From Candidatus Omnitrophota bacterium (GTDB taxonomy: Bacteria > Omnitrophota > Gorgyraeia > Gygaellales > Profunditerraquicolaceae): DNA of 64,000 nt. The stretch spans positions 40,793-104,792 of the forward strand of contig JAQUQW010000001.1 in the NCBI GenBank assembly GCA_028716245.1, written 5' to 3'. The position numbers and the translations under genes were made by a program. Below are positions 24,909 through 41,418 of the stretch, one piece after another. The notes below the pieces were generated by a model, which did no database searches, was not told the DNA's origin, and was given only the letters and a program-made list of their open reading frames with translations. Positions within the stretch are counted from its first letter, which is position 1; every line of letters begins with the position of its first letter.

Positions 24909-26074
24909 TGGATATAAACAAGCAGATAGAAATAATTAAAAGGGGCGCTGTAGAGATAATCTCTGAAGATGAGCTTCGTAAGAAGCTGGAGCAGAGCATA
25001 AAACTTAAGCGCCCCTTAAAAATTAAAGCCGGGTTTGATCCTACTGCCCCTGATTTGCACCTAGGCCACACTGTACTCTTAAGAAAACTGCGTCAATTTC
25101 AGGATTTGGGGCATGAAGTTTATTTTCTTATCGGTGATTTTACCGGCCAGATCGGCGATCCTAGCGGCCGCTCTGAAATTAGAAAACAACTCACCAAACA
25201 GGAGGTATCCAGGAATGCCCAAACCTATAAAAAGCAGGTGGCTAAAATTTTGGATATTGGTAAATTAAAGATCGTTTTTAACAGCAAATGGTTTGAAAAA
25301 ATGTCGGGGGTAGAGATGTTGCAGCTTACTACCCATGCTTCGGTTTCTCAGATGCTGGCGCGTGATGATTTCAAGAAGCGTTTTACAAACGGAGAAAATA
25401 TTTCGATTTTGGAGTTTGTTTATCCTTTAATGCAAGGGTATGATTCGGTCATGCTTGAGGCTGATGTGGAGATCGGAGGCACAGACCAGATATTTAACTT
25501 GCTGGTCGGCAGGGAATTTCAAAAAGATTTCAGCCAGCCGCAACAGGTGGTCCTGACTATGCCGCTTTTGGAAGGCACCGATGGCGTAGCTAAAATGAGC
25601 AAGTCCTACGGAAATTATATCGGCATCAATGAACCGGCAAGCGAGATCTTCGGTAAAATCATGTCAATCTCCGACGAGCTAATGCTTAAATATTACGAAT
25701 TGTTAACTGATGAAGAGTTGGTTAAAGTTAAACAGACGCATCCAAAAGAGGCAAAGGTAAATTTGGCCAAGATTATTATCACTCAATATCATTCTGCCGG
25801 GGCCGCGGAAAAAGAAGCGGAAGAATTTTCCCGCGTTTTTTCCCAGAAAGAAATTCCCCAAGATATGCCTGTTTTTAAAACTGACGGCAAAAAAAATATT
25901 CTTACTATCCTTACCGAAAGTAATTTAGCCGCCAGCGGCAACCAAGCGCGCAGGCTGATAAAACAGGGGGCAGTCAGCTTCAATAACGTAAAAATCGAAA
26001 AAGATGATTTTACCCCGATTGAAGCCGGCACCCTTAAGGCCGGTTCCCGCAGGTTCCTGAAAATTACTTTGTAG
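24908..26074 (+). CDS. tyrS: Tyrosine--tRNA ligase
   Basis: HLGH and KMSKS motifs. C-terminal S4-like domain. Confidence 0.9.
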
Positions 26075-26919
26075 ACAGTTTACGTAACCGCATATTCCCC
26101 AATCAGATCTATAAGAAATATTTCTCCGCAAAATAAATGTGGTTAGATTTTTCTACCTTCTGCGTCCATTATAACTGGAGGAGAGAGGACCATGCCATCA
26201 TATGCGCGTAAGCATCAATTGCAACAGTCATTAGTGTATCATGCGTTTAGCCGAAGCAGCGGACGCAAGGTGATTTTTCAAGAATCTAGGGACTTCGATC
26301 ATTTTAAGACCTTGCTTTGCGAGTATAGCAATAGGTTTGATTCAAAAATATATCATTGGGTCATTATGCCGAATCACTACCATCTTGTGGTTGAATTCGA
26401 ATGCCCTGAATTGATTTCGAAATTTATGGCAGGATTACATCGAGCGTATAGCCATTATTACCATAAGCAATATAACGCGGCGGGTTTTTTATGGCAAGGC
26501 AGATTTAAATTACAGCCGATACAAAAAGATTTATATTTGAAAAATTGCGGCAGATATGTGGAGAGAAATCCGGTGCGCGCGGGAATGGTTGCGGAGGCCT
26601 GCGAATATGCGCATAGCAGCGCGCGATTTTATTGTTTAGGACAAGAGGACGGAATAACGCGAGTTAGTCCCGATTTTGAAGACTTCGGAAAAGAGATTGT
26701 TGGGCGACAGGCAGCCTATAAAGAATTCTTGAGAGTTTTTGATAGTAAAGAGAATGTTTATTTCTCGAATATAGAGATCCCCCGTGGTGATCAGGATTTC
26801 CTACGCAGGCTGGTGAAGACAGGTATGCATTATTTTCCGAGAAGGCAAGGCAGGAAAGCCGCAATATTTGTTCCGTAACCATTTAACTTCAATAGAATTA
26901 CCTACACTGTCTATAATTC
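26069..26919 (+). mobile_element. Compact IS-like unit: an IS200-like Y1 transposase (RAYT) bounded by about 20 bp imperfect inverted repeats
   Basis: The left inverted repeat TTGTAGACAGTTTACGTAA (26069-26087) overlaps the tyrS stop. The right inverted repeat ATTACCTACACTGTCTATAATT is at 26897-26918. The reverse complement of the left repeat matches the right repeat at 16 of 19 positions. Both flanks recur around 34196-35544. Confidence 0.6.
26192..26878 (+). CDS. IS200-like / REP-associated tyrosine transposase (Y1 HUH, TnpA_REP-like)
   Basis: HUH motif HYHLVV. C-terminal NPVRAGMVAEACEYAHSSARFY matches the conserved Y1 transposase catalytic helix. 228 aa. Confidence 0.8.
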   Translation: MPSYARKHQLQQSLVYHAFSRSSGRKVIFQESRDFDHFKTLLCEYSNRFDSKIYHWVIMPNHYHLVVEFECPELISKFMAGLHRAYSHYYHKQYNAAGFLWQGRFKLQPIQKDLYLKNCGRYVERNPVRAGMVAEACEYAHSSARFYCLGQEDGITRVSPDFEDFGKEIVGRQAAYKEFLRVFDSKENVYFSNIEIPRGDQDFLRRLVKTGMHYFPRRQGRKAAIFVP

Positions 26920-26970
26920 TTAATTCTTTTACCTTTATTTTCCAGGGGTTTAGCGATATAATCATTAATT

Positions 26971-27234
26971 ATGCTTTGGATGATAATCGGCATTTGTGCC
27001 GCCACCCTAACCATGTTTTCTTTTATCCCCCAGATAGCCAGGTCTTTAAGGACCAAATCTGTCAAGGATGTAAGCCCGGTTACTTTATTTCAGCTTTCCG
27101 CGGGGGTTTTATTATGGATGATTTACGGAATTTACCGCAAAGACCCGATAATCATATCGGCAAACGCAGTAACTTTAGTAAGCTTATCGATATTAATATT
27201 TTTATATTTTAAATATGGGAGATTAGCCAAATGA
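26971..27234 (+). CDS. SemiSWEET / PQ-loop family small membrane sugar transporter
   Basis: 87 aa. Three TM helices with the PQ motif [10 protein letters not shown]. It ends where rmlA starts. Confidence 0.55.
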
Positions 27235-28097: not shown

Positions 28098-28911
28098 AAA
28101 TATTTTGATTTTGGGAAAAGGATTTATCGGCCAAAGGCTGCAAAGAGAGCTTAACTGTGAAATTGACGGCTCGATGATAAATTGTTTTAGTGATGCGGAA
28201 AAACTGATAAAAAAATACAATCCAAAAATAATCATTAATTGCATCGGCTCGACCGGCAGGCGCAACGTGGATGACTGTGATCTGGATAAGGACGCGGCTT
28301 TGTTGGCAAATAGTTTTGTTCCGGTAATCTTGGCTGAGATATGCCTGCGTAACAGCATCAAGCTTGTGCATATAAGCAGCGGGTGTATTTTTAATTACGA
28401 TTATAAGAAAGATAAGCCGATTAAGGAGGAGAGTGAAGATTATTTTTTCAAGCTTTTTTACAGCAGGAGCAAGATTTACTCAGAGAGGGCTATTGAAGAG
28501 TTAGCGCGCGATTATGATATCCTGATTGCAAGAATTAGGATTCCGCTTATTAACGAAAAACATCCTAAGAATTTGTTAGATAAACTTTTAAAGTATAATA
28601 AGGTCATTAATATCCCTAATTCTGTTACTTATATCCCTGATTTTATCCGGGCAGTTAAACATTTGATAAAGATTGGCGCCCGGGGAGTTTATAATGTGGT
28701 AAATAAGGGTGGTTTACGTTATCCCGATCTTATGCGGGCATATCAAAAATATGTCCCATCGTATAAATTTAAGCTTATTCAAGTAAAGAGCCTTGGGTTG
28801 GTTAGGACCGATTTAATTTTATCTACAAACAAGCTTGAGAAATCCGGTTTTAAGGTTAGGAATATTAACTCAGTCTTAGAAGAATGCGTAAAAGAATACC
28901 TAAAATCTTAG
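28090..28911 (+). CDS. rmlD: dTDP-4-dehydrorhamnose reductase-like SDR
   Basis: Rossmann motif [13 protein letters not shown]. Position between rmlA and rmlB. Confidence 0.6.
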
Positions 28912-29915
28912 TTACCGGCGCCGCCGGCTTTATCGGCAGCGCATTTGTTAGATTATTATCGAAGGGACTGTCCCCGAAGGGGACTGTCCCTGAGGTTACT
29001 ATAATTGATAAACTCACTTATGCCGCAGACCTGAAGCGTCTCGAAGATATTGATAAAAGGGGACTGTCCCCGAAGGGGACTGTCCCCTTTTACAAAGCCG
29101 ATATTTGCAATAAAAAACAGATTGAAAGGATTTTTTTAAAAGAGAAACCGGATATCGTCGTCCATTTCGCCGCTGAAAGCCACGTCGACCGCAGCATTAA
29201 CGATGCTTCGCCGTTTATCGAAACTAACATTAAGGGCACGCAGGTTCTTATTGATGCCAGCCGCAAATACAATATAAAGCAATTTATTTTAATCTCGACT
29301 GACGAAATCTACGGAGAGATTGCCAATGGCAAGTTTAATGAGGATTCTCCGATTAAACCGAACAGCCCTTACGCGGCTTCTAAGGCCGCCGCGGATCTTT
29401 TAGTACAATCATATATCCGGACTTATAAGTTTCCCGCGATAATTATCCGTCCCTCAAATAATTACGGGCCATGGCAGTATCCGGAGAAGTTGATTCCACT
29501 GGCGATCTTAAGAATAATAGAGGGAGGTAAAGTTCCGCTTTATGGTAAGGGGCAAAATGTGCGTGAATGGCTCTATGTAGATGATTGCGCAAAAGGCATC
29601 CTGGCGATTATGGATAAAGGCGCAAGCGGGCAGATTTATAATTTAGGCAGCAGCCAGGAAAGCAGGAATATCGATACGGTAAAACTTTTATTGGAAACTT
29701 TGGGAGTCAGCCAGAAAAGATTTAAATTTGTTAAGGATCGCCTTGGCCACGATATAAGATATAGTTTGGATTCCAAAAAGCTTTACCAAAAGCTCGGCTG
29801 GGAACCCAGCGTTAAACTTGCGCAAGGCCTTAAGCTTACCGTGGACTGGTCGCTTAAGCATCAAGCTTGGCTTAGAAGTAAGCTAGGAGATATAAATAAA
29901 TTGTATAATAAATAG
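28884..29915 (+). CDS. rmlB: dTDP-glucose 4,6-dehydratase carrying two in-frame 10-codon palindromic repeat insertions
   Basis: [24 protein letters not shown] and the YAASKAA catalytic motif. Two surface-loop insertions GLSPKGTVP. The stop codon TAG is part of a REP-like palindrome. Confidence 0.85.
   Translation: MRKRIPKILVTGAAGFIGSAFVRLLSKGLSPKGTVPEVTIIDKLTYAADLKRLEDIDKRGLSPKGTVPFYKADICNKKQIERIFLKEKPDIVVHFAAESHVDRSINDASPFIETNIKGTQVLIDASRKYNIKQFILISTDEIYGEIANGKFNEDSPIKPNSPYAASKAAADLLVQSYIRTYKFPAIIIRPSNNYGPWQYPEKLIPLAILRIIEGGKVPLYGKGQNVREWLYVDDCAKGILAIMDKGASGQIYNLGSSQESRNIDTVKLLLETLGVSQKRFKFVKDRLGHDIRYSLDSKKLYQKLGWEPSVKLAQGLKLTVDWSLKHQAWLRSKLGDINKLYNK
28964..28990. repeat. In-frame tandem palindrome GGGACTGTCCCCGAAGGGGACTGTCCC (REP1 copy 1) inside rmlB
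   Basis: Two units of the GGGGAC-T-GTCCCC palindrome separated by GAA. It encodes GLSPKGTVP. Confidence 0.85.
29059..29087. repeat. REP1 copy 2 inside rmlB (GGGGACTGTCCCCGAAGGGGACTGTCCCC, flanked by AAAA and TTTT)
   Basis: Encodes RGLSPKGTVPF in frame. Confidence 0.85.
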
Positions 29916-29959
29916 GGACAGCGACCATTATTTTTGAAAAATAATGGTCGCTGTCCCTA
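29913..29959. repeat. REP-like palindrome copy 2. A 47 nt perfect palindrome TAGGGACAGCGACCATTATTTTT-G-AAAAATAATGGTCGCTGTCCCTA.
   Basis: Its leading TAG is the rmlB stop codon. It probably also acts as a terminator hairpin. Confidence 0.85.
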
Positions 29960-29975
29960 TTAAAAAAGGAGAGAT

Positions 29976-31034
29976 ATGCCGGTTGTTATAGTAACGGGTT
30001 CCTGCGGTTTAATCGGCTCTGAAACCGTCAGTTTCTTTGCCGAAAAAGGTTTTGATATCGTCGGTATCGATAATAATATGCGCAAAAGTTTTTTTGGCGC
30101 GGATGGCTCAATCCTTTGGAATAAACAGCGTCTCCAGAAACAACATAAAAACTACCGTCATTATCACGTGGATATCCGCGATCAAGGAAAAATAAATTCA
30201 ATATTCAAGAAATTCAATAAAGATATCGCTTTAATTGCGCACGCCGCGGCCCAGCCTTCCCATGATTGGGCGGCTAAAGATCCCATGGTTGATTTTGGGG
30301 TTAATGCTCAAGGCACGCTGGTTATGCTTGAGGCCCTGCGCAAATTCTCACCCCATGCGGTTTTTATCTTTACCTCAACGAATAAAGTCTACGGTGATAC
30401 TCCTAACCGCCTGCCCTTAATTGAAAAAGAAAAGCGTTTTGAAATAGCCGGCGGCCATAAATATTATAAGGGTATCGATGAAACCATGAGCATCGATAAT
30501 TGTTTACATTCAGTTTTTGGGGCATCTAAAGTTGCCGCGGATGTGATGGCCCAGGAATACGGAAAATATTTTCATTTAAAGACCGGCATATTTAGGGGAG
30601 GCTGCCTTACCGGCCCGGCGCATTCCGGAGCCGAACTGCATGGATTTTTGTCTTATTTAGTAAAATGCGCGGTAACAAAACGCACATATAAAATTTACGG
30701 TTACAAGGGTAAGCAGGTAAGGGACAATATTCATTCATTTGATTTGGTTAACGCGTTTTACCACTACTTCCAGAATCCCCGCTTGGGTGAGGTTTATAAT
30801 ATTGGAGGAGGCAGGTTTGCCAATGTGTCGGTTTTAGAAGCAATTGAGATTTGCGAAAAATTAACCGGGGAACAGTTTGAGTATGAGTATATTGATACCA
30901 ACCGTATCGGCGACCACATCTGGTGGATCAGCGATGTCTCTAAATTTAAATCACATTATCCGAACTGGAATTACAAGTTTGGTATCGAAGAAACAATCAA
31001 ACAAATTCACGATAATTATAGACAGTCTATGTAA
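29976..31034 (+). CDS. NAD-dependent epimerase/dehydratase (CDP-paratose 2-epimerase-like SDR)
   Basis: [13 protein letters not shown]ossmann motif. Catalytic YGASKVAAD. Confidence 0.7.
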
Positions 31035-31069
31035 TTCCATAAAAGATAACCAGTTACAAAACAAATATT

Positions 31070-32116
31070 GTGGAAAATATGAAGTATAATAATATTTTAA
31101 TCACCGGCGGCGCGGGGTTTATCGGCAGTAACCTGGCGGTATATTTTAAGCGCGAATATCCGCGGCTTAAAGTTTTTGTTTTGGATAACTTGGTCCGCCG
31201 GGGAAGCGAATTTAATTTACCGCGGCTTAAGGAAAACGGCGTTAAGTTTATCCGCGGTGATGCCCGGCGCCCCAAAGACCTGGATCTGGAATTTGATATA
31301 GATTTGATATTGGAATGTTCAGCCGAGCCGTCGGTATTGGCGGGTTATCAGAATCCATCTTATATTATTGATACCAACCTGATGGGCACGGTTAACTGCC
31401 TTGAGTTGTGCCGCAAGCGTAAAGCGGGGATGATTTTCCTTTCCACAAGCAGGGTTTATCCCTATGAAAAAATAAACGCGATCAAGCGCCTTGAATCAAA
31501 GAGCAGGTTTGAGTGGCCGCGTTTTAGCGGTATCGATACGGATTTTTCTTTAACCGGCCCAAAGACTTTGTATGGGGCGACTAAGCTGGCGTCGGAATTT
31601 ATCCTGCAAGAGTATATTGCCGCCTACGGGATCAAGGCGGTTGTGAACCGCTGCGGAGTGGTTGCCGGGCCATGGCAGTTTGGCAAGGTTGACCAGGGGG
31701 TATTTACCTATTGGATGCTGGCGCACTATTTTAAAAAGCCGCTTAAATATATCGGTTTTGGCGGGCAAGGCAAACAGGTGCGCGACCTTTTACATGTTGA
31801 TGACCTTTGCCGGCTAATTGGCATACAGGCAAACAGCCTTCCTAAGTTAAGCGGCAATACTTATAATGTCGGCGGCGCAAGAGAAATAAGCCTTTCTTTA
31901 TTGGAAACCACCGCGCTTTGCCGGCAGATTTCCGGTAATAACGTTAAAGTTGGCCACAACTTGCGTAACCGTCCGGGCGATATCGCCGTATACCTTACGG
32001 ATAACAAAAAAGTTACCCGGGAACTAAAATGGCAGCCGCAAAAACCGGCAATAACGATCCTGAATGATATTTTTAACTGGATCAGGAATAATGAGGCGAA
32101 GCTAAGAAAACTCTAA
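31070..32116 (+). CDS. NAD-dependent epimerase/dehydratase family protein
   Basis: ILITGGAGFIGSNL. YGATKLASE (YxxxK). Confidence 0.7.
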   Translation: MENMKYNNILITGGAGFIGSNLAVYFKREYPRLKVFVLDNLVRRGSEFNLPRLKENGVKFIRGDARRPKDLDLEFDIDLILECSAEPSVLAGYQNPSYIIDTNLMGTVNCLELCRKRKAGMIFLSTSRVYPYEKINAIKRLESKSRFEWPRFSGIDTDFSLTGPKTLYGATKLASEFILQEYIAAYGIKAVVNRCGVVAGPWQFGKVDQGVFTYWMLAHYFKKPLKYIGFGGQGKQVRDLLHVDDLCRLIGIQANSLPKLSGNTYNVGGAREISLSLLETTALCRQISGNNVKVGHNLRNRPGDIAVYLTDNKKVTRELKWQPQKPAITILNDIFNWIRNNEAKLRKL

Positions 32117-32166
32117 ATAAAAAAAATAGATCCGATCACGGTTGTTTTAGTAAATACATAATTAAC

Positions 32167-32194
32167 TTGACAAATCATATTTGTATTATATAAT
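32167..32194 (+). promoter_or_regulatory. Putative sigma70 promoter TTGACA-16 nt-TATAAT. It lies only 6 nt before the ATG, so the transcript may be leaderless.
   Basis: TTGACA at 32167-32172 and TATAAT at 32189-32194. The ORF start is at 32201. Confidence 0.4.
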
Positions 32195-32200
32195 TTTAGC

Positions 32201-33379
32201 ATGAAGTATTACAGGCGAAATATAGAAGGTGTCCTTAAGAAAGCCGCTCTCCAATTCCGCGTTTTAGTTTTGACCGGGATGCGCCAGACGGGAAAGTCTA
32301 CGCTTCTTGCGCATCTTTTCCAAAAGACGCACCGCTATGTTTCTTTAGATAATCCGCGCGATTTAAAGCTCGCCCAGGAGGATCCGGAGCTATTTTTTGA
32401 TGAGTATAAAGAGCCGTTAATCATAGACGAAATTCAATATGCCCCGCAGCTTCTGCCGTATATTAAGATAAGGGCGGATGAATCAGGGAGAAGAGGGCGG
32501 TTTATACTCACCGGTTCGCAGCAATTTACGATGATCCATAATCTCCGAGAGAGTTTGGCGGGTAGGGCGGCGATTTTTCATCTTTTGCCCATGGCTATTA
32601 CTGAGGCAAAAAGCGCCACGCAGAACTATTCTTTCCGCGGTATTAATGGTTCATATCCAGAGTTAATGTTAAGGCCAAACCATGATTCGCAGCGCTGGTT
32701 TGGATCTTATGTATCCACATATTTAGAGAAAGACGTGCAGCCTTTTTATCGGCTGGAGAAAATAACCCATTTCCGCGACCTGCTCTTTCTTTTAGCTGCC
32801 CGCTCATCCCAGGCCTTAAATTATCAGTCTCTTTCTAATGATTTGGGCGTATCGATTCAAGCGGTGAAATTATGGGTAAGCATCCTTGAAGTATCCCAGG
32901 TTATATTTCTGCTTAGGCCATATCATCTTAATTTAGGCAGCCGTATTGTAAAATCTCCAAAAGTATATTTTACCGACATCGGATTAGTAAATTATTTAAT
33001 CGGCAATAAATCAAAAATTGCTCTTACGCGCGGCGCGCAGGCAGGGGCTATTTTCGAGAATTTTGTGATCCAGGAACTATTAAAACATTATTTTAACCTC
33101 GGATTAACGCCGCCTCTTTACTATTACCGGACAAACAACGGGCTGGAAATAGATATAATTATTGAAGAAAAGGCGGGTGTGATTAGGCCTTGTGAGATCA
33201 AATTAACTAAAACGCCCAATTCCAGCATGATTAATTCGATAGAACGGTTGCGCAATCTGAGCAAAAGCAAAAAATTGTCTATACTAGACGGTTGTGTTAT
33301 CTCGCTTGTTGATAAATCTTTTCCTCTTACTAAAACTGCTAGGGCATATAATCTAAAAGAGTTCTTGTCGGTTATTTAA
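32201..33379 (+). CDS. AAA+ ATPase (AAA_14 / DUF4143-type)
   Basis: Walker A GMRQTGKST. Walker B LIIDEIQY. C-terminal DUF4143-like region. Confidence 0.7.
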   Translation: MKYYRRNIEGVLKKAALQFRVLVLTGMRQTGKSTLLAHLFQKTHRYVSLDNPRDLKLAQEDPELFFDEYKEPLIIDEIQYAPQLLPYIKIRADESGRRGRFILTGSQQFTMIHNLRESLAGRAAIFHLLPMAITEAKSATQNYSFRGINGSYPELMLRPNHDSQRWFGSYVSTYLEKDVQPFYRLEKITHFRDLLFLLAARSSQALNYQSLSNDLGVSIQAVKLWVSILEVSQVIFLLRPYHLNLGSRIVKSPKVYFTDIGLVNYLIGNKSKIALTRGAQAGAIFENFVIQELLKHYFNLGLTPPLYYYRTNNGLEIDIIIEEKAGVIRPCEIKLTKTPNSSMINSIERLRNLSKSKKLSILDGCVISLVDKSFPLTKTARAYNLKEFLSVI

Positions 33380-33419
33380 TAATCTCGTAATAGGAAAACA
33401 GATCCGGCCCCAATTTGAG

Positions 33420-34193
33420 ATGAAATCAATTAAGCCAAAGAATATCCTGCGTAAACGTTTTATCGCCGCTGAATCTGGCGCCCTGGTTATCGAAACCATC
33501 CAAACAATAGAAGAGGACACTCTGCGAAGCAGGGTGTCCTCTGGTACTAGATTGCGCGTGCTTAAACTCAAAGGTACCTGGCGCGCCAATGATTACAATG
33601 AACTTTGCTTTGAAGTTACCTTACGTAAAGGCCCGCCTGAAACCTACACCTTTAAAGGAAGCTGGAAACTAAACAAAAACCAACAAATAGAATACACATC
33701 CGAAGATGGCCGCGACACATTAACCTTCCAGGGTTATTGGAACATATCTTCGGCCAATCGCCTTGTTTATATGCTTGAAGGCAGCTCAACCTCGCGCTTT
33801 GAATTCAAGGTTCAGCTTGAATCGCCGACGCTTTATCCTAAAAAAGGAGAAATCCGCTATCGTATTGGCGTAGGTATCCGCCAAAGCCGCCTGAGCGCGC
33901 CCGGCCAGATAATTATTCTCTACGGTGAATGGAAGTTTGGCCGCGATTTAGAACTGACTTTTCAAATGGATTATGGCCAGGGTAAGGTCAGGGCAATAGA
34001 ATTTGGGGCAGAGGTAACCTTTGGCCGTGACAAAGTAATTTTGGCGCTTAAGAACGAGTTTGGCAAGCCTTTAGGTCTAACTCTTACCATGACCCATAGA
34101 TTCTTAGAGCACCTTGACGCCGAAGCCTTTGTAAGGCTAAAATCCCGCCAAAAAGAACAAGCAATCGAAGCCGGCATCACCATCCCTTTCTAA
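33420..34193 (+). CDS. Hypothetical beta-rich protein
   Basis: 257 aa ORF with internal repeated tri-/tetra-strand-like segments. No recognisable motif. Confidence 0.3.
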   Translation: MKSIKPKNILRKRFIAAESGALVIETIQTIEEDTLRSRVSSGTRLRVLKLKGTWRANDYNELCFEVTLRKGPPETYTFKGSWKLNKNQQIEYTSEDGRDTLTFQGYWNISSANRLVYMLEGSSTSRFEFKVQLESPTLYPKKGEIRYRIGVGIRQSRLSAPGQIIILYGEWKFGRDLELTFQMDYGQGKVRAIEFGAEVTFGRDKVILALKNEFGKPLGLTLTMTHRFLEHLDAEAFVRLKSRQKEQAIEAGITIPF

Positions 34194-34374
34194 TAACGTA
34201 GACAGTGTAGCTAAGATCTTGTAATGTAAAGAGATATAAAACAAATATTTTATATTCAAAGAATTTTTATTAGATTTTACGTCTTTCTACGTCCATTGAT
34301 AGTAGAAAGGAGAGCTTAAATGAGCAATAAACTTTGAGGTTTCATTCTGCAACCTCATGTTTTTACTGGGTAAA

Positions 34375-34432
34375 TAGGGACAGCGACCATTTTTTTCTTC
34401 TATGTGAACAAGAAAAATGGTCGCTGTCCCTA
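34375..34432. repeat. REP-like palindrome copy 3 (TAGGGACAGCGACCAT...ATGGTCGCTGTCCCTA), intergenic
   Basis: Same 14 nt arms as the copies at 5408 and 29913. Confidence 0.8.
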
Positions 34433-34485
34433 TTTAACATCATATCTCTTGACTTTTTTACCTTGTTTGTTAAAATATCCGTTCA

Positions 34486-34818
34486 ATGACTGAACAGCCC
34501 CAAAAAGAAGAAACTCTCTTTATTTTCAAAGAGTTAGAGGCCAACCCAAATACTACTCAACGGGATCTTTCCAGCCGCCCGAACATCTCCTTAGGTAGAA
34601 CTAACTATCTTCTCCGTGAACTCATTTTAAAGGGTTTCATCAAAGCCAAAAGCTTCACCGGTAACCCCGGGAAGCTAAGAAAAATGCATTATCTTCTAAC
34701 CGAGAAAGGCTTGGAAGAAAAATTCAGGCTTATTAAACATTTCCTGCAAATAAAAGAAGTAGAATACAATAAACTGAAACAGGAAAGTGATCTACTGATG
34801 AAAACTTATGGAGATTAA
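34486..34818 (+). CDS. MarR-family winged-helix regulator (EPS-associated type)
   Basis: 110 aa. The wHTH region is QRDLSSRPNISLGRTNYLLRELILKGFIK. It lies inside a polysaccharide locus. Confidence 0.55.
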   Translation: MTEQPQKEETLFIFKELEANPNTTQRDLSSRPNISLGRTNYLLRELILKGFIKAKSFTGNPGKLRKMHYLLTEKGLEEKFRLIKHFLQIKEVEYNKLKQESDLLMKTYGD

Positions 34819-34833
34819 CTATATTAGAAATCC

Positions 34834-35363
34834 ATGAAAAATAATAAAAATGTATATATAATTGCTGGCCCCAATGGTTCAGGAAAGACTACATTTGCGA
34901 ATAAATTTTTGCCTGATTATGCCGTATGCCAGAATTTTGTGAACGCCGATCTCATAGCTCAAGGGCTTTCGCCATTTTCTCCCCGCGTATTTGCTATAAA
35001 AGCTGGAAGAATTGTTTTGGAGCAGATCAATGGGTTTGCGGAAAGCGGGGTTGATTTCGGATTTGAGACTACGTTGTCAGGTAAATCATATGTCAATATC
35101 CTAATTCACAGCTTGCTATCGCGCGCATTAAGGAGAGAGTCTTAATGGGCGGCCACGATGTCCCCTCTAAGGATGTGCGTAGGCGTTTTACCAGGTCTAT
35201 GGTTAATTTGTTTAGATTGTATCAGCCGTTATTGGATTCTTGGATGATTTTTAATAACTCCGGCATTACTCCCGTTTTAATCGCGAAAAATGTGGATGGG
35301 AATTTAATTATTTCTGATGAGCAATCATTTAACAAGATTATAAAAATGGAGAATAAAAAATGA
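34834..35363 (+). pseudogene. Zeta-toxin-like / AAA-family P-loop kinase, disrupted by an internal deletion plus frameshift
   Basis: ORF 34834-35145 carries the P-loop GPNGSGKTT. ORF 35145-35363 carries the C-terminal GGHDVPSKDVRRRF motif. The C-terminal frame is open from about 35090 (..SQLAIARIKERVLMGGH..). About 20 residues expected between the two halves are missing. Confidence 0.55.
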
Positions 35364-35509
35364 AAAGGGAGATTACTATACAGGATAAGGCGGAGTTAGC
35401 TATGAAAAGCGCGATTCGCCAGGTTGTCCAGGAGCATAAAAAATCCGGGCGTCCTTTGGCCGTATGGAAAAACGGTAAAATGGTAAGGATATCGGCAAAT
35501 AAACTTTAA
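35360..35509 (+). CDS. Small hypothetical protein (49 aa), translationally coupled to the broken ATPase (ATGA overlap)
   Basis: ORF MKREITIQDKAELAMKSAIRQVVQEHKKSGRPLAVWKNGKMVRISANKL. It is below the ORF-track size cutoff. Confidence 0.25.
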   Translation: MKREITIQDKAELAMKSAIRQVVQEHKKSGRPLAVWKNGKMVRISANKL

Positions 35510-35516
35510 TTATAGA

Positions 35517-36236
35517 ATGAGATTACGTACACTGTCTATAATTATTATTCTTCTCTTGGCCACCACTCGCGGATTTTGCTATCCGGCCGACGTAGTCAGC
35601 CTCAACAACCGGGAGTATTTTCCGGCGGCGCAAAAAGCGATCGCGCAGGCAAAGAAATCTATATTTATAGTGATGTATTTAATCAGTTTCGACAAAGAAA
35701 ACAAAAGCTCAAAAGTTTTTCAATTAGTGGACGAACTGGTTAAAGCTAAGCTTAGGGGGGTGGAGGTTAAGGCTATTTTGGATTACCAGAGTAGCTCTAC
35801 TTTTCCCGCGGGCCAGGAAAATTATGCGGCATTTAAGTTTCTTAAGGATAAGGGAATTGATGCTTATTTTGACGGCGCGGTAGTTTACACCCACACTAAA
35901 GCCATGGTTATCGATAAGAGGATAGTTATTTCCGGAAGCCACAACTGGTCTGACGCCGCGCTTGAGAGGAACAACGAGACTTCATTTTTAATCGATTCAC
36001 CTGAATTAGCCAGCCGGCTTTTGGATGAATTTTCGCGGATCAAGCTCTCGAGGCCTGAATTAAAAGAAGGCGCGGTGGCTAGAATTCCATATTGGGCAAT
36101 GGAAAAAAACGGAATTATCCTGGATATGCTCCACCGGCACGATGAAAAGTGTCTTGATACCTGGCTTTTGCTCCTAAGGGATTTTGATGGCAATGCCGCT
36201 GGCCTGGTAAATACAAATTATGAAGTGCTGGCTTGA
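35517..36236 (+). CDS. Phospholipase D-family (HKD) protein with signal peptide, Nuc-like
   Basis: HKD motif HTKAMVIDKRIVISGSHNWS. N-terminal signal peptide. The first codons overlap the right-end repeat of the IS-like unit. Confidence 0.75.
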   Translation: MRLRTLSIIIILLLATTRGFCYPADVVSLNNREYFPAAQKAIAQAKKSIFIVMYLISFDKENKSSKVFQLVDELVKAKLRGVEVKAILDYQSSSTFPAGQENYAAFKFLKDKGIDAYFDGAVVYTHTKAMVIDKRIVISGSHNWSDAALERNNETSFLIDSPELASRLLDEFSRIKLSRPELKEGAVARIPYWAMEKNGIILDMLHRHDEKCLDTWLLLLRDFDGNAAGLVNTNYEVLA

Positions 36237-36969
36237 AGGTTTAGGGATGTTAAAGGATATAGATCATCCGTTTTACCGCAGGGATATAAACGCGCTACTT
36301 CGGCACTTAAATAAATTATACAAATTAGTTGAGATAGATACCCGGCTTAATCAGCCGATTAAAGTGAAGCTTTTAAGAAAAGTAGAAGGAGAAAATTTTA
36401 GCCTTCCTAGGGCCTATTGGGATTATGGCTGGGCAAATAGATTGGATCTGAATGCCAAGGCCTGCCTTTTGATTAATTTAGCCGAGCTGGGGCGTAATCC
36501 GCGGTCGCCGGAGTGGTCGCTCTCTCGCCCTCAGCTTATCGAAAAATATGGGGTAGGTATGAATTCGCTTTATCGGGGAATGAAGGCCTTAAGGGATTTT
36601 AATATCATTGATGTTAAGTGTAGCGAGATTGATGTGGGGTATGAGAGCAGGATGGCCTCCACAACCACTTTCCTGGGATTATATGATCCGCGCGAATTTG
36701 AGCAAAGCCTAAAACACCTTGAGGATACTCACGGTAGAGAATTAATAACCAAAAGCAGAAATTATGCTTTTGTGGTTTTTAAGGGATATGATTTAACCGT
36801 GATTGAGATGATCGCCGGTTTTATTAACACTTATGGGCCAGCTAAAGTGGATGAGGCTTTTAAGGTAGTTGCGAAGAAAAACCCGGATAATCCCAAAAGA
36901 TCATTCGGCTACGTAACCGGAATTTTAGGCAAGATGAAAGGTAAAGTATCGCATTCTTATGTTAAGTAA
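36220..36969 (+). CDS. Hypothetical protein
   Basis: 249 aa ORF overlapping the PLD gene end. Possible wHTH-like segment RPQLIEKYGVGMNSLYRGMKALRDFNIIDV. Confidence 0.3.
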   Translation: MKCWLEGLGMLKDIDHPFYRRDINALLRHLNKLYKLVEIDTRLNQPIKVKLLRKVEGENFSLPRAYWDYGWANRLDLNAKACLLINLAELGRNPRSPEWSLSRPQLIEKYGVGMNSLYRGMKALRDFNIIDVKCSEIDVGYESRMASTTTFLGLYDPREFEQSLKHLEDTHGRELITKSRNYAFVVFKGYDLTVIEMIAGFINTYGPAKVDEAFKVVAKKNPDNPKRSFGYVTGILGKMKGKVSHSYVK

Positions 36970-38206
36970 AATTAAAAAACTCGACCATTTCACCAGGAAC
37001 ATAATCTTCGTTTTTCTGGGGACGTCCCTGGCTAATTTCCTTAATCTTATCTACCAGCTTTTAATCGCGCACAAGCTTTCTCCGCAAGATTTTGCTTCCT
37101 TCAATGCTTTGCTTGCCGTATTTATGCTTATTTCTAATCCTTTAGGAACACTCCAGGTAGCGGTAGCTAAATATGCTTCGCAATACCGCGCCCGCAAGGA
37201 AGCCCATAAAATCAACGCGTTAATCTATGGCTTATTCACCAAGGGTATAATTATTGCATTCTTTATTTTTATTTTATTTATTTTTATCTCGCCGTTTATT
37301 ATCAACAGCTTAAAAATATATTCTTTGCCTTCAGGTTATATCTTAGCCATGTTAATTGCTTTATCTTTGCTGGCTCCGGTTTTAGTCGGAGGATTGCAGG
37401 GTTTGGAATTATTTGGCTGGTTAGTTACCTCTTCATTATTCGGCGGGATTATAAAGCTGCTTTTTACAGTGTTATTTATTTCGCTGGGTTATCAGATCGC
37501 CGGAGCGTTGGGGGCGTTTTTGATCTCTGTTATTTTCGGAGTGATTATCGGAATTATCCCTTTGCGTAAATTCTTAACTGCTCAGGTGACAGCGGAGAAG
37601 CCGGATTACAAAGATGTATTTTTATATTTATTCCCTATTGCTATAAGCAATATGTGTTTTATCTGGTTGATCAGTTTTGATATGGTTCTGGTAAAATACT
37701 TTTTTTCGCCGCAGGCCTCAGGAGTATATTCCTTGGCACAGATGGTGGGTAAAATATTCCTATTCTTACCAGGGGCAATTAGCCTGGTAATGTTCCCGCG
37801 CACAAGCGGCCTAAACGCTATTAACTCTGATACCCGGAGTGTTTTAAAGAAGTCGCTGCTTTATGCGCTTTGTCTTTGTTTGAGCGCTGCGATATTTTAT
37901 AATATCTTTCCCGGGTTTACTTTAAAGCTTCTTACCGGTAAAGCGCTGCCGGAGTCAATATTATTAGGAAGGCTATTTAGTATTTCGATGACTTTTTTCG
38001 CATTGTGTTTTGTGCTGATTAATTATTTTCTTTCCCTTAAAAGTTTTAGTTTTATAAAATATTTGGTTATTTCAACGGTACTGCAATTCGCGGGTATTCT
38101 AATATTTCATAATAGCCTGTTTGAGGTACAGCTGGTTCTCTGCGTAAATTCATTTCTGCTTTTTACATTATTATTCTCAAAGTTAAGGATTAAACCTAGC
38201 GTATGA
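36959..38206 (+). CDS. wzx: Oligosaccharide flippase (Wzx / MOP superfamily polysaccharide biosynthesis protein)
   Basis: 415 aa with about 12 TM helices. N-terminal pattern typical of Wzx. Confidence 0.75.
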   Translation: MLSKIKKLDHFTRNIIFVFLGTSLANFLNLIYQLLIAHKLSPQDFASFNALLAVFMLISNPLGTLQVAVAKYASQYRARKEAHKINALIYGLFTKGIIIAFFIFILFIFISPFIINSLKIYSLPSGYILAMLIALSLLAPVLVGGLQGLELFGWLVTSSLFGGIIKLLFTVLFISLGYQIAGALGAFLISVIFGVIIGIIPLRKFLTAQVTAEKPDYKDVFLYLFPIAISNMCFIWLISFDMVLVKYFFSPQASGVYSLAQMVGKIFLFLPGAISLVMFPRTSGLNAINSDTRSVLKKSLLYALCLCLSAAIFYNIFPGFTLKLLTGKALPESILLGRLFSISMTFFALCFVLINYFLSLKSFSFIKYLVISTVLQFAGILIFHNSLFEVQLVLCVNSFLLFTLLFSKLRIKPSV

Positions 38207-38997
38207 AAGATATTAAAGAAAAAGTATCCGTAATCATGCCTGCTTATAAAGAAGTAGGACATATTGCCAACAGCATAGATATTACGGCTAAGACTTTTCA
38301 GGATTTTGGCTGCCCCTGGGAATTGATTGTGGTCGATGATGGTTCAGAAGATGGGACCTATGAAGCGGCGCTTGAAGCCGCAAAGAAATACCCCGGTTGC
38401 GTCATTGTAAAGAAGAACGCTTTTAATATAGGCAAGGGCCGGGCATTAAAAAGAGCAATCCATTTTGTAACCGGTGATTATACCGTGTTATTGGATGCGG
38501 ATATGGATTTACATCCTTTACAGATAGTAACCCTCTTTGATATTATGCGCCTGAATAATGCTGATGTAGTAATCGGCTCAAAGATGCATCCTAATTCAGT
38601 CGTTAATTATTCGCTGCAGCGTAGAATGATCAGTTTAGGTTACTATATCTTTGTGAAAATACTTTTTGGTTTGCCTTGTCATGATACCCAGACAGGTTTA
38701 AAATTGTTTAAGACTAAGGTTTTAAAGGATGTATTTCCGCGTATTCTGGTTAAGAAATTTGCTTTTGACCTTGAGTTATTGGTAAATGTTTTTCATTTGG
38801 GCTATAAAATAACCGAGGCGTCGATTGTGCTTACTCCTCAGAGAAGATTTGGAAGGGTCAGTTTTTCTTCAATATATACTACTTGGTGGGATACTTGCGC
38901 TGTTTGGTACAGAATGTATGTTTTAAAATATTATGATCGTATCGATTATCATCGCCGTAAAAACCTGGCAAAAGAATTTAGAAGAATGCGTCGCTAA
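38203..38997 (+). CDS. Glycosyltransferase family 2 (Dpm1-like)
   Basis: VSVIMPAYKE, VVDDGSEDGT and DADMD motifs. Confidence 0.8.
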   Translation: MKDIKEKVSVIMPAYKEVGHIANSIDITAKTFQDFGCPWELIVVDDGSEDGTYEAALEAAKKYPGCVIVKKNAFNIGKGRALKRAIHFVTGDYTVLLDADMDLHPLQIVTLFDIMRLNNADVVIGSKMHPNSVVNYSLQRRMISLGYYIFVKILFGLPCHDTQTGLKLFKTKVLKDVFPRILVKKFAFDLELLVNVFHLGYKITEASIVLTPQRRFGRVSFSSIYTTWWDTCAVWYRMYVLKYYDRIDYHRRKNLAKEFRRMRR

Positions 38998-39916
38998 GTG
39001 TTTGGAATTGGATTATCCGGATTTTGAGATAATTATCCTTCCGGATAAAGCTTTCGCTAGGGGACTGTCCCCGAAGGGGGCTGTCCCCATAAAAGTAATT
39101 CCAACCGGTAATCTTAAGCCCGCTGACAAACGCGATATCGGTTCCAAACACGCCAAAGGTGAGATCATCGCCTTTATCGATGATGATGCTTATCCGGTTA
39201 AAGATTGGCTTAAATCTGCTATAGTAAATTTCTCAGATCCAGAAGTGGCCGCAGTCGGAGGCCCGGCAATAACCCCGCCGGATGATACCTTAAGCCAACA
39301 GGCAAGCGGCAAGATTTATTCATCACTTATGGTCAGTGGGAATTTTGTTTACCGCTATGTTCCTAAAGTAAAGAGGACAGTTGATGATTTGCCAAGCTGC
39401 AATTTTATTGTGCGTAAGGATGTAATTGAAGAACTGGGAGGTTTTAATACAAGCTTTTGGCCCGGAGAAGACACAAAGCTATGCCTTGATATTGCGCATA
39501 AGTTAGGCAAGAAGATTATCTATGATCCGGCTGTTCTGGTTTTTCATCATCGCCGCACAGTGTTTATGGCTCACTTGAAGCAAATCGCTAATTATGCTCT
39601 GCATCGGGGATATTTTGTTAAGAAATTTCCGGAGACATCCTTAAAACTATCATATTTTATCCCCAGTATATTTGTCGCAGGTTTAATCTTTGGTCCGGTT
39701 GTTGGATTATTGTCCTATCCGGCTAAGTTATTGTATCTTGTTTGTGCAGTTTTATATTTAACAATAGTTTTTATATCAAGCTTATCAGGGACTAGGGACT
39801 ATCCCCGAAGGGGACTGTCCCTAAGTTTTATGGTTTTCTCAGGTATTGTTCTCACGCATATTACTTATGGTATTTTTTTTATCAAAGGTTTGTTGGCTAG
39901 AGGGTTAAAAGAATGA
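38933..39916 (+). CDS. Glycosyltransferase family 2 with C-terminal TM helices, carrying two REP1 insertions
   Basis: GT-A DxD-like region IAFIDDDAY. Insertions GLSPKGAVP and a degenerate copy at 39788-39822. Confidence 0.7.
   Translation: MIVSIIIAVKTWQKNLEECVAKCLELDYPDFEIIILPDKAFARGLSPKGAVPIKVIPTGNLKPADKRDIGSKHAKGEIIAFIDDDAYPVKDWLKSAIVNFSDPEVAAVGGPAITPPDDTLSQQASGKIYSSLMVSGNFVYRYVPKVKRTVDDLPSCNFIVRKDVIEELGGFNTSFWPGEDTKLCLDIAHKLGKKIIYDPAVLVFHHRRTVFMAHLKQIANYALHRGYFVKKFPETSLKLSYFIPSIFVAGLIFGPVVGLLSYPAKLLYLVCAVLYLTIVFISSLSGTRDYPRRGLSLSFMVFSGIVLTHITYGIFFIKGLLARGLKE
39060..39088. repeat. REP1 copy 3 (GGGGACTGTCCCCGAAGGGGGCTGTCCCC) in frame in the GT2 gene
   Basis: Encodes RGLSPKGAVP. One substitution, A to G, relative to the consensus. 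Confidence 0.85.
39788..39822. repeat. Degenerate REP1 copy 4 (GGGACTAGGGACTATCCCCGAAGGGGACTGTCCC) in frame in the GT2 gene
   Basis: The first unit is disrupted and the second is intact. It encodes TRDYPRRGLSLS in frame. Confidence 0.7.
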
Positions 39917-41418
39917 TGAAAGTCATAATTTCTTATCCGCCATTAAGCAATGAAAAAGGTTGTCCTACTTTAGGCCAGAACCGGCAGTTCCAGTATTTTA
40001 AAGAGCCAACTCTGATTTATCCGGTTGTTCCGGCTACCGCGGCGACTATGCTTAAACAGGCAGGATATGATGTTATTTGGAACGATTGCCTGGCTAAGGG
40101 CTGGAGTTCTGCGCAGTTTCTTGATTTTATTCGTACAGAGCAGCCGGATGTTATTGTTTTTGAAACCAAAACCCCGGTTGTAAAAGAGCATTGGAAAATC
40201 ATTAATGACCTAAAGGAAAGCGCCAGGGGACTGTCCCCGCAGGGGACTGTCCCCGTGATCGTATTATTCGGCGACCACGTTACCGCCTTACCCGAAGAAT
40301 CTTTTCAGAATTCTCAGGTTGATTTTGTCATTACCGGTGGAGATTATGATTTTTTGCTTTTAAACTTATGTAATGTTCTTAAGCAAAGGGGACTGTCCCC
40401 GCAGGGGACTGTCCCCGACAGCGTTGAATTCGAGCCCGGTATATATTATCGAGAGAACGGCCAAATAAAGAATACCGGTAAATTTACTTTAAACCACAAT
40501 TTAGATAAAGTTCCTTTCATTGATCGTGTTCTGACATGTTGGCAGGATTATGCTTATAAGAATGGTAACTATAAGCGTATTCCCGGAACTTATATTATGA
40601 GCAGCCGTGATTGTTGGTGGGGAAAATGCACATTTTGCTCTTGGCCTACGCTTTATCCAAGCTTCCGCAGCCGGAGTGTTGAAAATGTCCTTAATGAAAT
40701 TGGGGAGCTTATTGAAAGGTATAATGTTCGGGAAATTATGGATGATAGCGGGTGTTTTCCGGCGGGAGAGTGGTTGCGTAATTTTTGTCAGGGCATGATT
40801 AGCCGCGGCTATAATAAAAAAATTTACTTTGGCTGTAATATGCGTTTTGGCGCACTAAGTGATGAAGATTATAGTCTTATGAAGCAGGCTAATTTTCGTC
40901 TGCTTTTATTCGGCCTTGAGTCAGCGAATCAAACAACATTAGACAGGATAAATAAGAACCTTAAGGTTGAGCGTATTGTGGAGGGATGTGAGGCAGCGAC
41001 TAAGGCCGGGCTTTACCCGCATATTACGGTTATGTTTGGTTATCCTTGGGAAAGTTATGAAGATGCGCTTAAAACATTACGGTTAGGCAGTTGGCTGCTT
41101 AAGAAGGGATACGCCTATACGATGCAGGCAACTATGGTAATTCCTTATCCGGGAACTCCATTATTTGAAGAATGCAAGAAAGAAGGATGGCTTAAGACTT
41201 TGGATTGGAATGATTATGATATGAAACAGCCGGTTATGCGCACTCCATTTGATGATGTTAAGGTGATGCAGCTTGTTCAGGGGATGTATAAGGTTTCCTA
41301 TCAGCCCGAATTTATCTTAAGAAAATTATTTTCCTTAAAAGATATTGATGATCTAAAGTATTGGTTACGCGCCGCCAGAAAGGTTTTCGGGCATATTGTT
41401 GATTTTAAGAAGGTTTAG
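39913..41418 (+). CDS. B12-binding domain radical SAM enzyme (class B) carrying two REP1 insertions
   Basis: CWWGKCTFCSW (CxxxCxxC). N-terminal B12-binding-like Rossmann region. Insertions GLSPQGTVP twice. Confidence 0.8.
   Translation: MMKVIISYPPLSNEKGCPTLGQNRQFQYFKEPTLIYPVVPATAATMLKQAGYDVIWNDCLAKGWSSAQFLDFIRTEQPDVIVFETKTPVVKEHWKIINDLKESARGLSPQGTVPVIVLFGDHVTALPEESFQNSQVDFVITGGDYDFLLLNLCNVLKQRGLSPQGTVPDSVEFEPGIYYRENGQIKNTGKFTLNHNLDKVPFIDRVLTCWQDYAYKNGNYKRIPGTYIMSSRDCWWGKCTFCSWPTLYPSFRSRSVENVLNEIGELIERYNVREIMDDSGCFPAGEWLRNFCQGMISRGYNKKIYFGCNMRFGALSDEDYSLMKQANFRLLLFGLESANQTTLDRINKNLKVERIVEGCEAATKAGLYPHITVMFGYPWESYEDALKTLRLGSWLLKKGYAYTMQATMVIPYPGTPLFEECKKEGWLKTLDWNDYDMKQPVMRTPFDDVKVMQLVQGMYKVSYQPEFILRKLFSLKDIDDLKYWLRAARKVFGHIVDFKKV
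40226..40254. repeat. REP1 copy 5 (GGGGACTGTCCCCGCAGGGGACTGTCCCC) in frame in the radical SAM gene
   Basis: The spacer is GCA instead of GAA. It encodes RGLSPQGTVP. Confidence 0.85.
40388..40416. repeat. REP1 copy 6 (GGGGACTGTCCCCGCAGGGGACTGTCCCC) in frame in the radical SAM gene
   Basis: Encodes RGLSPQGTVPD. Confidence 0.85.

Follow-up and report, generated by a model that had tools for sequence, protein, structure and literature searches.

A 29-nt hairpin repeat lies in frame in three glycan genes of an Omnitrophota bacterium and recurs letter for letter in other phyla

The window analyzed here, a 64,000-nucleotide stretch of contig JAQUQW010000001.1 (positions 40,793 to 104,792) from a Candidatus Omnitrophota bacterium, contains six copies of a 29-nt palindromic repeat, all in frame within three glycan genes. 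The same 29 letters recur across bacterial phyla, in some loci directly beside genes for Y1 (HUH) tyrosine transposases. We consider it probable, from sequence comparison, that the element is an in-frame, GGGGWSAS-class relative of the repetitive extragenic palindromes (REPs) and their hairpin-forming doublets (REPINs), mobilized by Y1 transposases of the REP-associated (RAYT) or TIRYT type, and that the copies have been filtered to permissive protein loops and to one reading phase. A preliminary description of this DNA had read the repeat as a selfish in-frame palindrome, which is essentially right. What is new is that the sequence is identical across phyla, that the unit is a minimal 29-nt doublet showing covariation, and that enzyme loops in Omnitrophota are colonized densely and recurrently by phase-filtered copies.

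The window was searched with the pattern GGGGACTGTCCCC-NNN-GGGGACTGTCCCC, allowing up to three mismatches, with shuffled sequence as the control. The unit GGGGACTGTCCCC-GMA-GGGGACTGTCCCC was found at six sites, all on the + strand and with 0–3 mismatches, against 0.00 sites expected from the shuffles, and this search found nothing resembling the 29-mer in the remaining 52 kb. The observation of a repeat in the window is genuine. The six copies first described are confirmed, two of them with shifted starts (28963 instead of 28964, and 39794 instead of 39788), and all six lie, as claimed, inside coding sequence, within the open reading frames (ORFs) 28884-29915, 38933-39916 and 39913-41418, leaving each frame unbroken (Table 1). 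In five copies the first base is at codon position 2 and the peptide is RGLSP[KQ]G[TA]VP; in the copy at 39794 it is at codon position 1 and the peptide is RDYPRRGLSLS, so that the six do not share a single peptide as had been proposed. This copy had also been called degenerate, which is too simple: together with the copy at 28963 it belongs to a subfamily with A...T ends that is common in relatives. In none of its six frames does the 29-mer contain a stop codon.

The repeat is not unique to this locus. When one genome per species was scanned for exact matches, the 29-mer was found letter-identical in at least 120 stretches from at least five phyla; the groups among the matches listed are Actinomycetes, Gamma- and Betaproteobacteria, Planctomycetota, Omnitrophota and Acidobacteriota/Aminicenantes, and the carriers include a cultured Pseudoduganella (isolate genome). 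The G+C content of the carrier stretches ranges from 0.40 to 0.74, with flanks that are unrelated between lineages. Single metagenome-assembled genomes (MAGs), for example MFD09964 and MFD02242, hold many such loci, and copy density in the window reaches six in 64 kb. In GC-rich genomes, many copies lie just 3' of stop codons, often near an inverted partner. Longest-ORF calls were judged unreliable in these genomes, and a rough test based on G+C at third codon positions was used; it classed approximately 10 copies as read-through intragenic and 105 as not read through, the latter class pooling intergenic with unresolved copies and including some probable intragenic ones below the threshold. 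Copies that lie in the window or in low-G+C Omnitrophota loci are almost all intragenic.

These distributions bear on whether GLSPxGTVP is a selected protein-level motif, as its recurrence in the same loop of many orthologs might suggest, or whether the copies are assembly artefacts. Identical DNA occurs in unrelated genes and proteins, in both orientations and in several frames, and in the GC-rich genomes of other phyla it lies mostly outside read-through ORFs, 3' of stop codons and in all frames, which supports a repeat at the DNA level as originally claimed. Independent assemblies, built from different samples and with different platforms, contain copies, and so does an isolate genome. We give almost no credence to either explanation.

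Searches for carriers and precedents gave no exact 29-mer match in 2.9 million viral contigs and no megablast match in the plasmid database PLSDB. A literature search with the element sequence returned unrelated eukaryotic primers only, a search for palindromic repeats in Omnitrophota returned nothing relevant, and the supplements of PMC3733652 contain neither the element sequence nor its peptides. A CRISPR repeat, a DNA uptake sequence and an operator site were considered and dropped, given no array spacing, no species specificity, and occurrence in coding DNA in all frames. All-versus-all clustering of ORFs from 120 loci yielded mostly common families or spurious GC-rich frames, the shared contexts being a GT9-GT2 linker and BioD. 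In the pairs L064/L101 (both labelled Planctomycetota), L067/L095 (Omnitrophota and Planctomycetia) and L045/L055 (Planctomycetia and Omnitrophota), the element stands at seemingly the same place in homologous genes with similar flanks. L064 and L045 were inspected as proteins; the shared places are the linker before the GT2 domain of a GT9-GT2 protein and a site inside BioD after a PxxPxxA segment. Common descent, gene transfer or a common hot spot could account for such places.

Each 13-mer of the unit is palindromic, and the two 13-mers are also mutually complementary. Folded as single-stranded DNA, the 29-mer forms one 12-bp hairpin at -13 kcal/mol, in which a T.T mismatch separates two 6-bp stretches and a GAA or GCA triloop closes the stem; a lone 13-mer reaches only -3.3 kcal/mol, and the RNA folds into a hairpin at -23 kcal/mol. 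Covariation was assessed in 40 distinct natural variants from all loci examined, counting pair changes against 500 shuffles. The long-hairpin model gave 21 cells altered on both sides versus 3.6 expected, a value reached in 0 of 500 shuffles, with covarying changes G1-C29 to A-T, A5-T25 to T-A, T9-A21 to G-C and C13-G17 to T-A, while a model of two small hairpins gave no excess in the same variants (3 cells versus 3.0 expected). Several variants lose the palindromy of the single 13-mers yet retain half-to-half pairing, indicating that the object selected or recognized is the 29-nt hairpin. Folding energies and covariation therefore favor one 12-bp hairpin over the whole unit, rather than the hairpin in each 13-mer that had been described. 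This paired-half arrangement is termed a doublet in the REPIN literature. Relatives also carry a long form, with identical arms around a 27-nt interior and the peptide GLSPxxLNQSxxKGTVP, which folds into the same stem. No Rfam family reached its gathering score in the window, and seven element-rich loci gave chance microRNA-hairpin matches only.

The identical 13-mer ends, and the long form with its 27-nt interior, would also fit a classical miniature transposable element of the inverted-repeat type (MITE), with 13-bp terminal repeats, a target-site duplication and a DDE transposase. This is very improbable: none of the copies shows a target duplication, neither the six in the window nor the filled/empty pair at 40388 discussed below; the transposases associated with the element are of the Y1 type, with no DDE enzyme among them; and the covariation indicates a folded single strand.

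The association with Y1 transposases was examined by an iterated search over all loci with E. coli RayT as the query. Among the matches listed, a RAYT-like Y1 gene adjoins the element, at no more than about 200 nt, in three of 120 element-centred 8-kb loci (L004, L025 and L035), where the chance expectation for three such adjacencies is roughly 0.01, assuming one transposase per ~5 Mb genome. A fourth gene of this type was detected in the window, at 26192-26878. In L004 (Planctomycetota), three T-form 13-mers lie 5' of the gene and an A-form 29-mer begins three bases past its stop codon; in L025 and L035 (Actinomycetes), element clusters lie 30–215 nt 5' of the gene. Homologs of the element-flanked transposases, at 55–60% identity, span Planctomycetota, Gammaproteobacteria and Acidobacteria (188–265 aa), and several carry the name RayT in their source; the repeats beside a number of them are given in Table 1. 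Inverted copies thus flank a RAYT gene on both sides in L004 and L208, and on the visible side in L025 and L035. The GGGGWSAS consensus is matched by GGGGACAG (L004, L208) and GGGGTCAG (L215), and GGGGACAT (L207, L210-L214) is one base off.

Sister repeats with the same architecture and another core were also seen, for example GGGGTCAGACCCC-TTC-GGGGTCAGACCCC and GGGGTCAGGCACC-TGMAG-GTGCCAGACCCC, the latter on both sides of a RAYT-like gene. Their places are L082 ~7460-7500 and L100 ~1930-1980 (both estimated), and L215 1115-1145 and 1839-1868.

Elements of this kind are already known. Tyrosine transposases designated TIRYT are flanked by GGGGWSAS repeats to form "TIRtrons"; the repeats, some of them self-complementary, are scattered singly, as dimers and in clusters, and occur in Acidobacteria, Planctomycetes and Proteobacteria (Di Nocera et al. 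2013, PMC3733652). The same work describes REPs inside genes, frequently as dimers, in species that include Opitutus terrae and Rickettsia conorii, so that such insertions are not as rare outside Rickettsia as had been stated, and reports that for CGTC-tagged repeats, including Rickettsia RPE-4/RPE-6, no dedicated transposase was found (PMC3733652). The present element resembles TIRtrons in the GGGGWSAS fit, the flanking of Y1 genes, self-complementarity, dispersal and host phyla. It differs in that the 13-nt palindrome is doubled to a 29-nt hairpin that is letter-identical across phyla, and in that the Omnitrophota copies are almost wholly intragenic and in frame. This likeness rests on the GGGGWSAS motif and the published description.

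REP/REPIN-RAYT systems, reportedly described in Nunvar 2010, Bertels & Rainey 2011 and Ton-Hoang 2012, share with the element a short G+C-rich imperfect palindrome (29 nt here, within 20–40 nt), a doublet folding into one hairpin, high copy number, inverted copies flanking a RAYT-like gene, and transposases whose best NCBIfam match is the RAYT model. Unlike these systems, no conserved GTAG or CGTC tag stands beside the 29-mer in the flanks listed, the transposases fall short of the cut-off of the RAYT equivalog model (65 versus 80 bits), and copies in the window and in low-G+C Omnitrophota are mostly intragenic, whereas REPs are by definition mostly extragenic. The 29-mer is also identical in five phyla, whereas REPINs are described as lineage-specific and vertically inherited (bioRxiv 10.1101/2022.05.22.493013).

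With the Rickettsia palindromic elements (RPEs) and the intragenic REPs of Opitutus terrae, the repeat shares in-frame palindromes, often dimers, in tolerated regions of genes that still look functional. RPEs are reportedly due to Ogata 2000, and RPE-1 elements are longer than the 29-mer. The host differs, and the likeness is one of analogy. IS200/IS605 insertion sequences have in common with the present system the catalytic domain PF01797 and insertion without target duplication; their TnpA recognizes an imperfect hairpin with a mismatched T. The 29-mer differs in carrying no gene and in showing no strand bias relative to GC skew, and the window transposase scores only 24 bits with the IS200 model.

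Comparison with orthologs indicated insertion at the measured sites, each with a gain relative to some orthologs. In ortholog locus L121, at 75% nucleotide identity to the window, site 40388 lacks a clean 30-nt (10-codon) segment that the window has gained; this filled/empty pair is 25% diverged, which limits its resolution for target duplication. The copy at 40226 is shared with six differences, the window has a net 18 nt more at 39794, and at 39060 L121 has a stretch of equal length that differs at ~12 of 29 positions by our own count and may be a decayed copy. In RmlB, the window is longer by ~7 aa at site 2, and by ~6 aa at site 1 relative to the shortest orthologs. The earlier figure of about 10 added residues thus holds for 40388 only, and 6–7 were added at three other measured sites.

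Among 47 radical SAM orthologs (67–85% identity), the two sites are hypervariable loops that may be empty, carry the short form, the long form or arrays of up to four half-units, encode the reverse-orientation peptide GQSPSGTDP, or hold unrelated repeat-like peptides. Site 40226 has short, long or reversed forms in most orthologs; the copy at 40388 is absent from P0004, P0005, P0007, P0009 and P0011. Among 120 RmlB orthologs, the loop after the GxxGxxG helix reads GLSPKGTVP in most close relatives, and elsewhere GISP alone, GTVP alone, other frames (GDCRRGGLN, RDCPRR...) or other repeats; in some it reads GDSSPIG, similar to the opposite-strand reading GDSP.... At RmlB site 2, most orthologs have LEEVKGKFKFYK where the window has LEDIDKRGLSPKGTVPFYK (+7 aa). 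Related Omnitrophota orthologs thus do carry GLSP..GTVP at the same positions, but the state of each site (absent, half, short, long, reversed or in another frame) differs by ortholog, which argues for hot spots or old insertions and not for an ancestral protein feature. The loops appear to be recurrent insertion sites, partial forms included, rather than the outcome of one ancestral event, and the insert is not always 10 residues.

Reading phase was counted in the window and 15 low-G+C loci (14 Omnitrophota, one labelled Planctomycetales), a sample that includes orthologous copies and in which not all copies are independent. Of 63 intragenic half-units, 62 read G[LQ]SP or GTVP irrespective of gene strand, and one was in the GDCP/GDSP phase, which contains Cys or Asp. 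This strong filter agrees with the claim that only tolerable phases have survived. Third positions of identical-residue codons are kept at 43–56% between the window and L121-L124, compared with 21 of 26 in element codons, suggesting either that the copies are young or that the DNA sequence of the element is maintained.

In other lineages, the same loops hold other recurrent inserts, for example LRITDYGLRITD, INPSTxRLRIDGERSRTI, NKWDRFYFS and RDGSQLKAELSPKKGQFSFGLRTVP. Carriers are P0017, P0023, P0027, P0028, P0033, P0043, P0052, P0114 and P0116 for the radical SAM gene, and P0148, P0162, P0178, P0223 and P0237 for RmlB. These peptides suggest further in-frame repeat families in Omnitrophota.

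The host genes appear functional from their translations, in which catalytic motifs are read without frameshifts, as first noted: GAAGFIG, STDE and YAASK in RmlB, DDD in the family 2 glycosyltransferase (GT2), and in the radical SAM enzyme a Cys triad, C234/C239/C242, that is invariant among the 47 orthologs. The motif of the triad (residues 234-242, CWWGKCTFC) is Cx4Cx2C, compared with the usual Cx3Cx2C. The radical SAM protein is identical to an NCBI protein encoded on a 649-kb contig of a Candidatus Omnitrophica MAG, and its B12-binding domain scores 27.6 bits, under the Pfam gathering score of 32.1. Structure prediction with AlphaFold placed the two inserts of RmlB and the two of the radical SAM enzyme in coil, each connecting a helix to the strand that follows in a Rossmann-like fold. 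In the RmlB model (predicted template modelling score, pTM, 0.80), copy 1 forms coil residues 27-36, linking helix 16-26 to strand 37-42, and copy 2 forms coil residues 58-68, with a predicted local distance difference test score (pLDDT) below 50 at 57-65. In the radical SAM model (pTM 0.87), copy 5 forms coil residues 105-114, linking helix 90-104 to strand 115-119, and copy 6 lies in coil residues 160-176, with pLDDT below 50 at 166-168. The insertion sites in both proteins are thus predicted to be surface loops, the mapping onto structures that the preliminary description had proposed.

A hairpin of this kind could instead have been domesticated for use by the host, as a stabilizer or punctuation of a polycistronic glycan transcript, a translational pause, or a protein-binding site. 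REPs stabilize mRNA in E. coli, and the stability of the RNA hairpin, the conservation of element nucleotides above that of synonymous sites, and the clustering of copies in the same glycan genes of the window and L122-L124 are in line with such a role. Repeat arrays also flank exopolysaccharide genes in Thauera (PMC3733652). However, a given copy is missing from some orthologs, copies run in either direction with respect to the gene and are placed in protein loops and not at gene boundaries, and no Rfam family matches, so we regard host benefit as quite unlikely.

The window contains one candidate mobilizer, a RAYT/TIRYT-like Y1 transposase with the motifs HYHLVV and YVERNPV (Table 1). The gene lies 2 kb upstream of the copies, and the preliminary description had noted neither it nor a connection with tyrosine transposases. 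Its best NCBIfam match is the REP-associated tyrosine transposase model NF047646, at 65 bits with a cut-off of 80; the scores of three transposases with this model (65, 68 and 57 bits) were all below 80. The IS200 model NF033573 scored 24 bits against a cut-off of 55, and identity to the element-flanked RAYT of L004 is 30%. The gene is flanked by inverted arms of a different repeat, TAGACAGTnTAsGTAA, of which five copies occur at 26.0–35.6 kb, where 0.12 were expected. Copies of this repeat are placed at gene boundaries. The same arms flank transposases of 73% and 54% identity in L127 and L128. Since the enzyme has its own repeat, it is no more than a candidate for mobilization of the 29-mer in this genome. 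In our own comparison, the arms have a GAC-A-GT core in common with the element and resemble GGGGACATTCTACTTT ends, so that cross-mobilization is possible; from sequence, we hold this to be doubtful. The mobilizer in this genome could be the enzyme at 26192-26878 or another Y1 transposase elsewhere in the genome.

Several results weigh against mobilization of the element by Y1 transposases as the explanation for the window copies, and the support for transposition is entirely comparative. No 29-mer stands next to the window transposase, the nearest being 2.1 kb downstream. L127 and L128, with their TAGACAGT-type arms, contain zero GGGGAC copies. Among the best 80 metagenomic relatives of the enzyme, none is flanked by GGGGACWGTCCCC, and the closest share a different repeat; that it is the cognate enzyme is accordingly treated as a possibility only. 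No transposase of the L004 subfamily was found in any Omnitrophota locus examined. At RmlB site 2, ortholog P0128 has LMSPKGTVPFYK, a half-unit that leaves the length unchanged, and net length changes of 18–21 nt fit poorly with simple 30-nt insertion. Neither a target-site motif nor a duplication could be made out at the copies. Finally, the G-rich strand carries 69 of 139 copies, and this absence of orientation bias relative to GC skew gives no support for a lagging-strand-template mode.

A rival explanation is that the copies are inherited relics, no longer transposed. Short-patch gene conversion, or template switching from one hairpin to another, would then keep them near-identical or create them anew in the same loops. 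The element is present in the same loops of most orthologs at 70–85% identity, and the third positions kept in its codons, the equal-length stretch at GT2 site 39060 in L121, the half-unit in P0128 that replaces native residues, and the lack of a cognate transposase among the Omnitrophota loci examined all point the same way. Such relics are nevertheless unlikely, since 13–29 nt is at or under the usual limit for homologous recombination, the 30-nt gain at 40388 is clean, new insertions are needed to explain orientation, frame and form that differ within one site, and the element adjoins transposase genes elsewhere.

We therefore favor transposition by Y1 enzymes, with the following model. The 29-mer would be a minimal REP/REPIN-like repeat, in which two 13-nt arms pair around a GNA triloop. 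A Y1 transposase would make the copies by acting on the single strand in its folded state, the mode of IS200/IS605 and REP-RAYT systems. In a gene-dense Omnitrophota genome, copies would land in coding DNA, and those that survive would be the ones that keep the frame, fall in a permissive surface loop and read G[LQ]SP-x-GTVP. Spread between phyla may have occurred by transfer of the element together with its transposase.

Table 1 Features in the window and repeats flanking related transposases.
Feature	Position	Strand	Sequence or product	Context or evidence
Host gene 1	28884..29915	+	dTDP-glucose 4,6-dehydratase, RmlB-like short-chain dehydrogenase/reductase, 343 aa	Pfam GDP_Man_Dehyd and Epimerase; PDB RmlB/DesIV E=6e-87
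Host gene 2	38933..39916	+	family 2 glycosyltransferase, 327 aa	Pfam Glycos_transf_2
Host gene 3	39913..41418	+	B12-binding-domain radical SAM enzyme, 501 aa	Pfam Radical_SAM
Copy 1	28963..28991	+	AGGGACTGTCCCCGAAGGGGACTGTCCCT, A...T-ended subfamily	RmlB-like gene, peptide KGLSPKGTVP
Copy 2	29059..29087	+	perfect 29-mer, GAA loop	RmlB-like gene, peptide RGLSPKGTVP
Copy 3	39060..39088	+	one mismatch, GAA loop	GT2 gene, peptide RGLSPKGAVP
Copy 4	39794..39822	+	AGGGACTATCCCCGAAGGGGACTGTCCCT	hydrophobic C-terminal part of GT2, peptide RDYPRRGLSLS, different phase
Copy 5	40226..40254	+	perfect 29-mer, GCA loop	radical SAM gene, peptide RGLSPQGTVP
Copy 6	40388..40416	+	perfect 29-mer, GCA loop	radical SAM gene, peptide RGLSPQGTVP
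Y1 (HUH) tyrosine transposase gene	26192..26878	+	RAYT/TIRYT-like, 228 aa	Pfam Y1_Tnp E=7.6e-16; candidate mobilizer
Upstream arm of transposase gene	26072..26087	+	TAGACAGTTTACGTAA	
Downstream arm of transposase gene	26898..26913	-	TAGACAGTGTAGGTAA	
TAGACAGTnTAsGTAA copy	31019..31034	+		end of ORF 29976-31034
TAGACAGTnTAsGTAA copy	34199..34214	+		
TAGACAGTnTAsGTAA copy	35523..35538	-		start of PLD-like ORF
Transposase flanks, L208 (Acidobacteria)			13-mer	on both sides
Transposase flanks, L209			GGGGACAGGCCCC-TGC-GGGGCCAGTCCCC	close variant
Transposase flanks, L215			GGGGTCAGGCACC-type hairpins	both sides, close variant
Upstream transposase flank, L207 and L210-L214			GGGGACAT(T/G)CTACTTT	downstream AATGTCCCC seen in L212-L214

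The neighborhood of the host genes differs between relatives. In L122 and L123, tyrS is followed directly by flippase, GT2, GT2 and radical SAM genes, whereas in the window ~11 kb (26.1–36.9 kb) lie between, containing the transposase, rmlA, an rmlD-like gene, rmlB, two epimerases, an AAA_14/DUF4143 ATPase, an HTH_24 protein and a PLD-like nuclease. The interposed segment (26100-36950) has the look of an island that was acquired. At 5405-5470, 29911-29961 and 34371-34436 stand three large intergenic palindromes, near-perfect and of the form AATAGGGACAGCGACCATT(A)TTTTT plus complement, one of them directly 3' of the rmlB stop codon; they share AGGGACAG with the element, and they may represent a third related repeat family or terminators. 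Other families of intergenic inverted repeats lie at 8078-8161, 16772-16838 and 2250-2298 / 14945-14993 / 10129-10155, for example AAGGGGACGGTTCTATTTTTT plus complement and TTTCCCGATTAACTGCGAAACTGTTTCG. The whole window (1-64000) forms an unusually long co-directional stretch: its long gene-like ORFs are all + strand, and each 2-kb bin has a positive GC skew. In L123, an epimerase/dehydratase of 668 aa (12898-14904) has a faint LAGLIDADG_3 match between its two enzyme halves, probably an intein or homing-endonuclease insertion.

A more far-reaching possibility, which we regard as a long shot, is that the hairpin, kept identical in at least five phyla by a Y1 transposase family that moves horizontally, is an active, (semi-)domesticated writer of loops and not inert junk, repeatedly inserting, expanding and excising in the surface loops of glycan enzymes and so producing heritable, possibly reversible variation in cell-surface sugars.

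If transposition of the 29-mer by Y1 enzymes is correct, transposase-associated palindromic repeats would colonize coding DNA at large scale in gene-dense uncultured bacteria, and the peptide signature G[LQ]SP..GTVP would confound alignments, domain boundaries and structure prediction for proteins of Omnitrophota and Planctomycetota. The 29-nt hairpin, with its natural compensatory variants, would provide a compact system for studying substrate recognition by Y1 enzymes, and the recurrently occupied loops of RmlB and the radical SAM enzyme would map permissive insertion sites for protein engineering. Because the same 29 letters occur in genomes from 40% to 74% G+C, the view of REPIN-like repeats as strictly lineage-specific and vertically inherited would be challenged.

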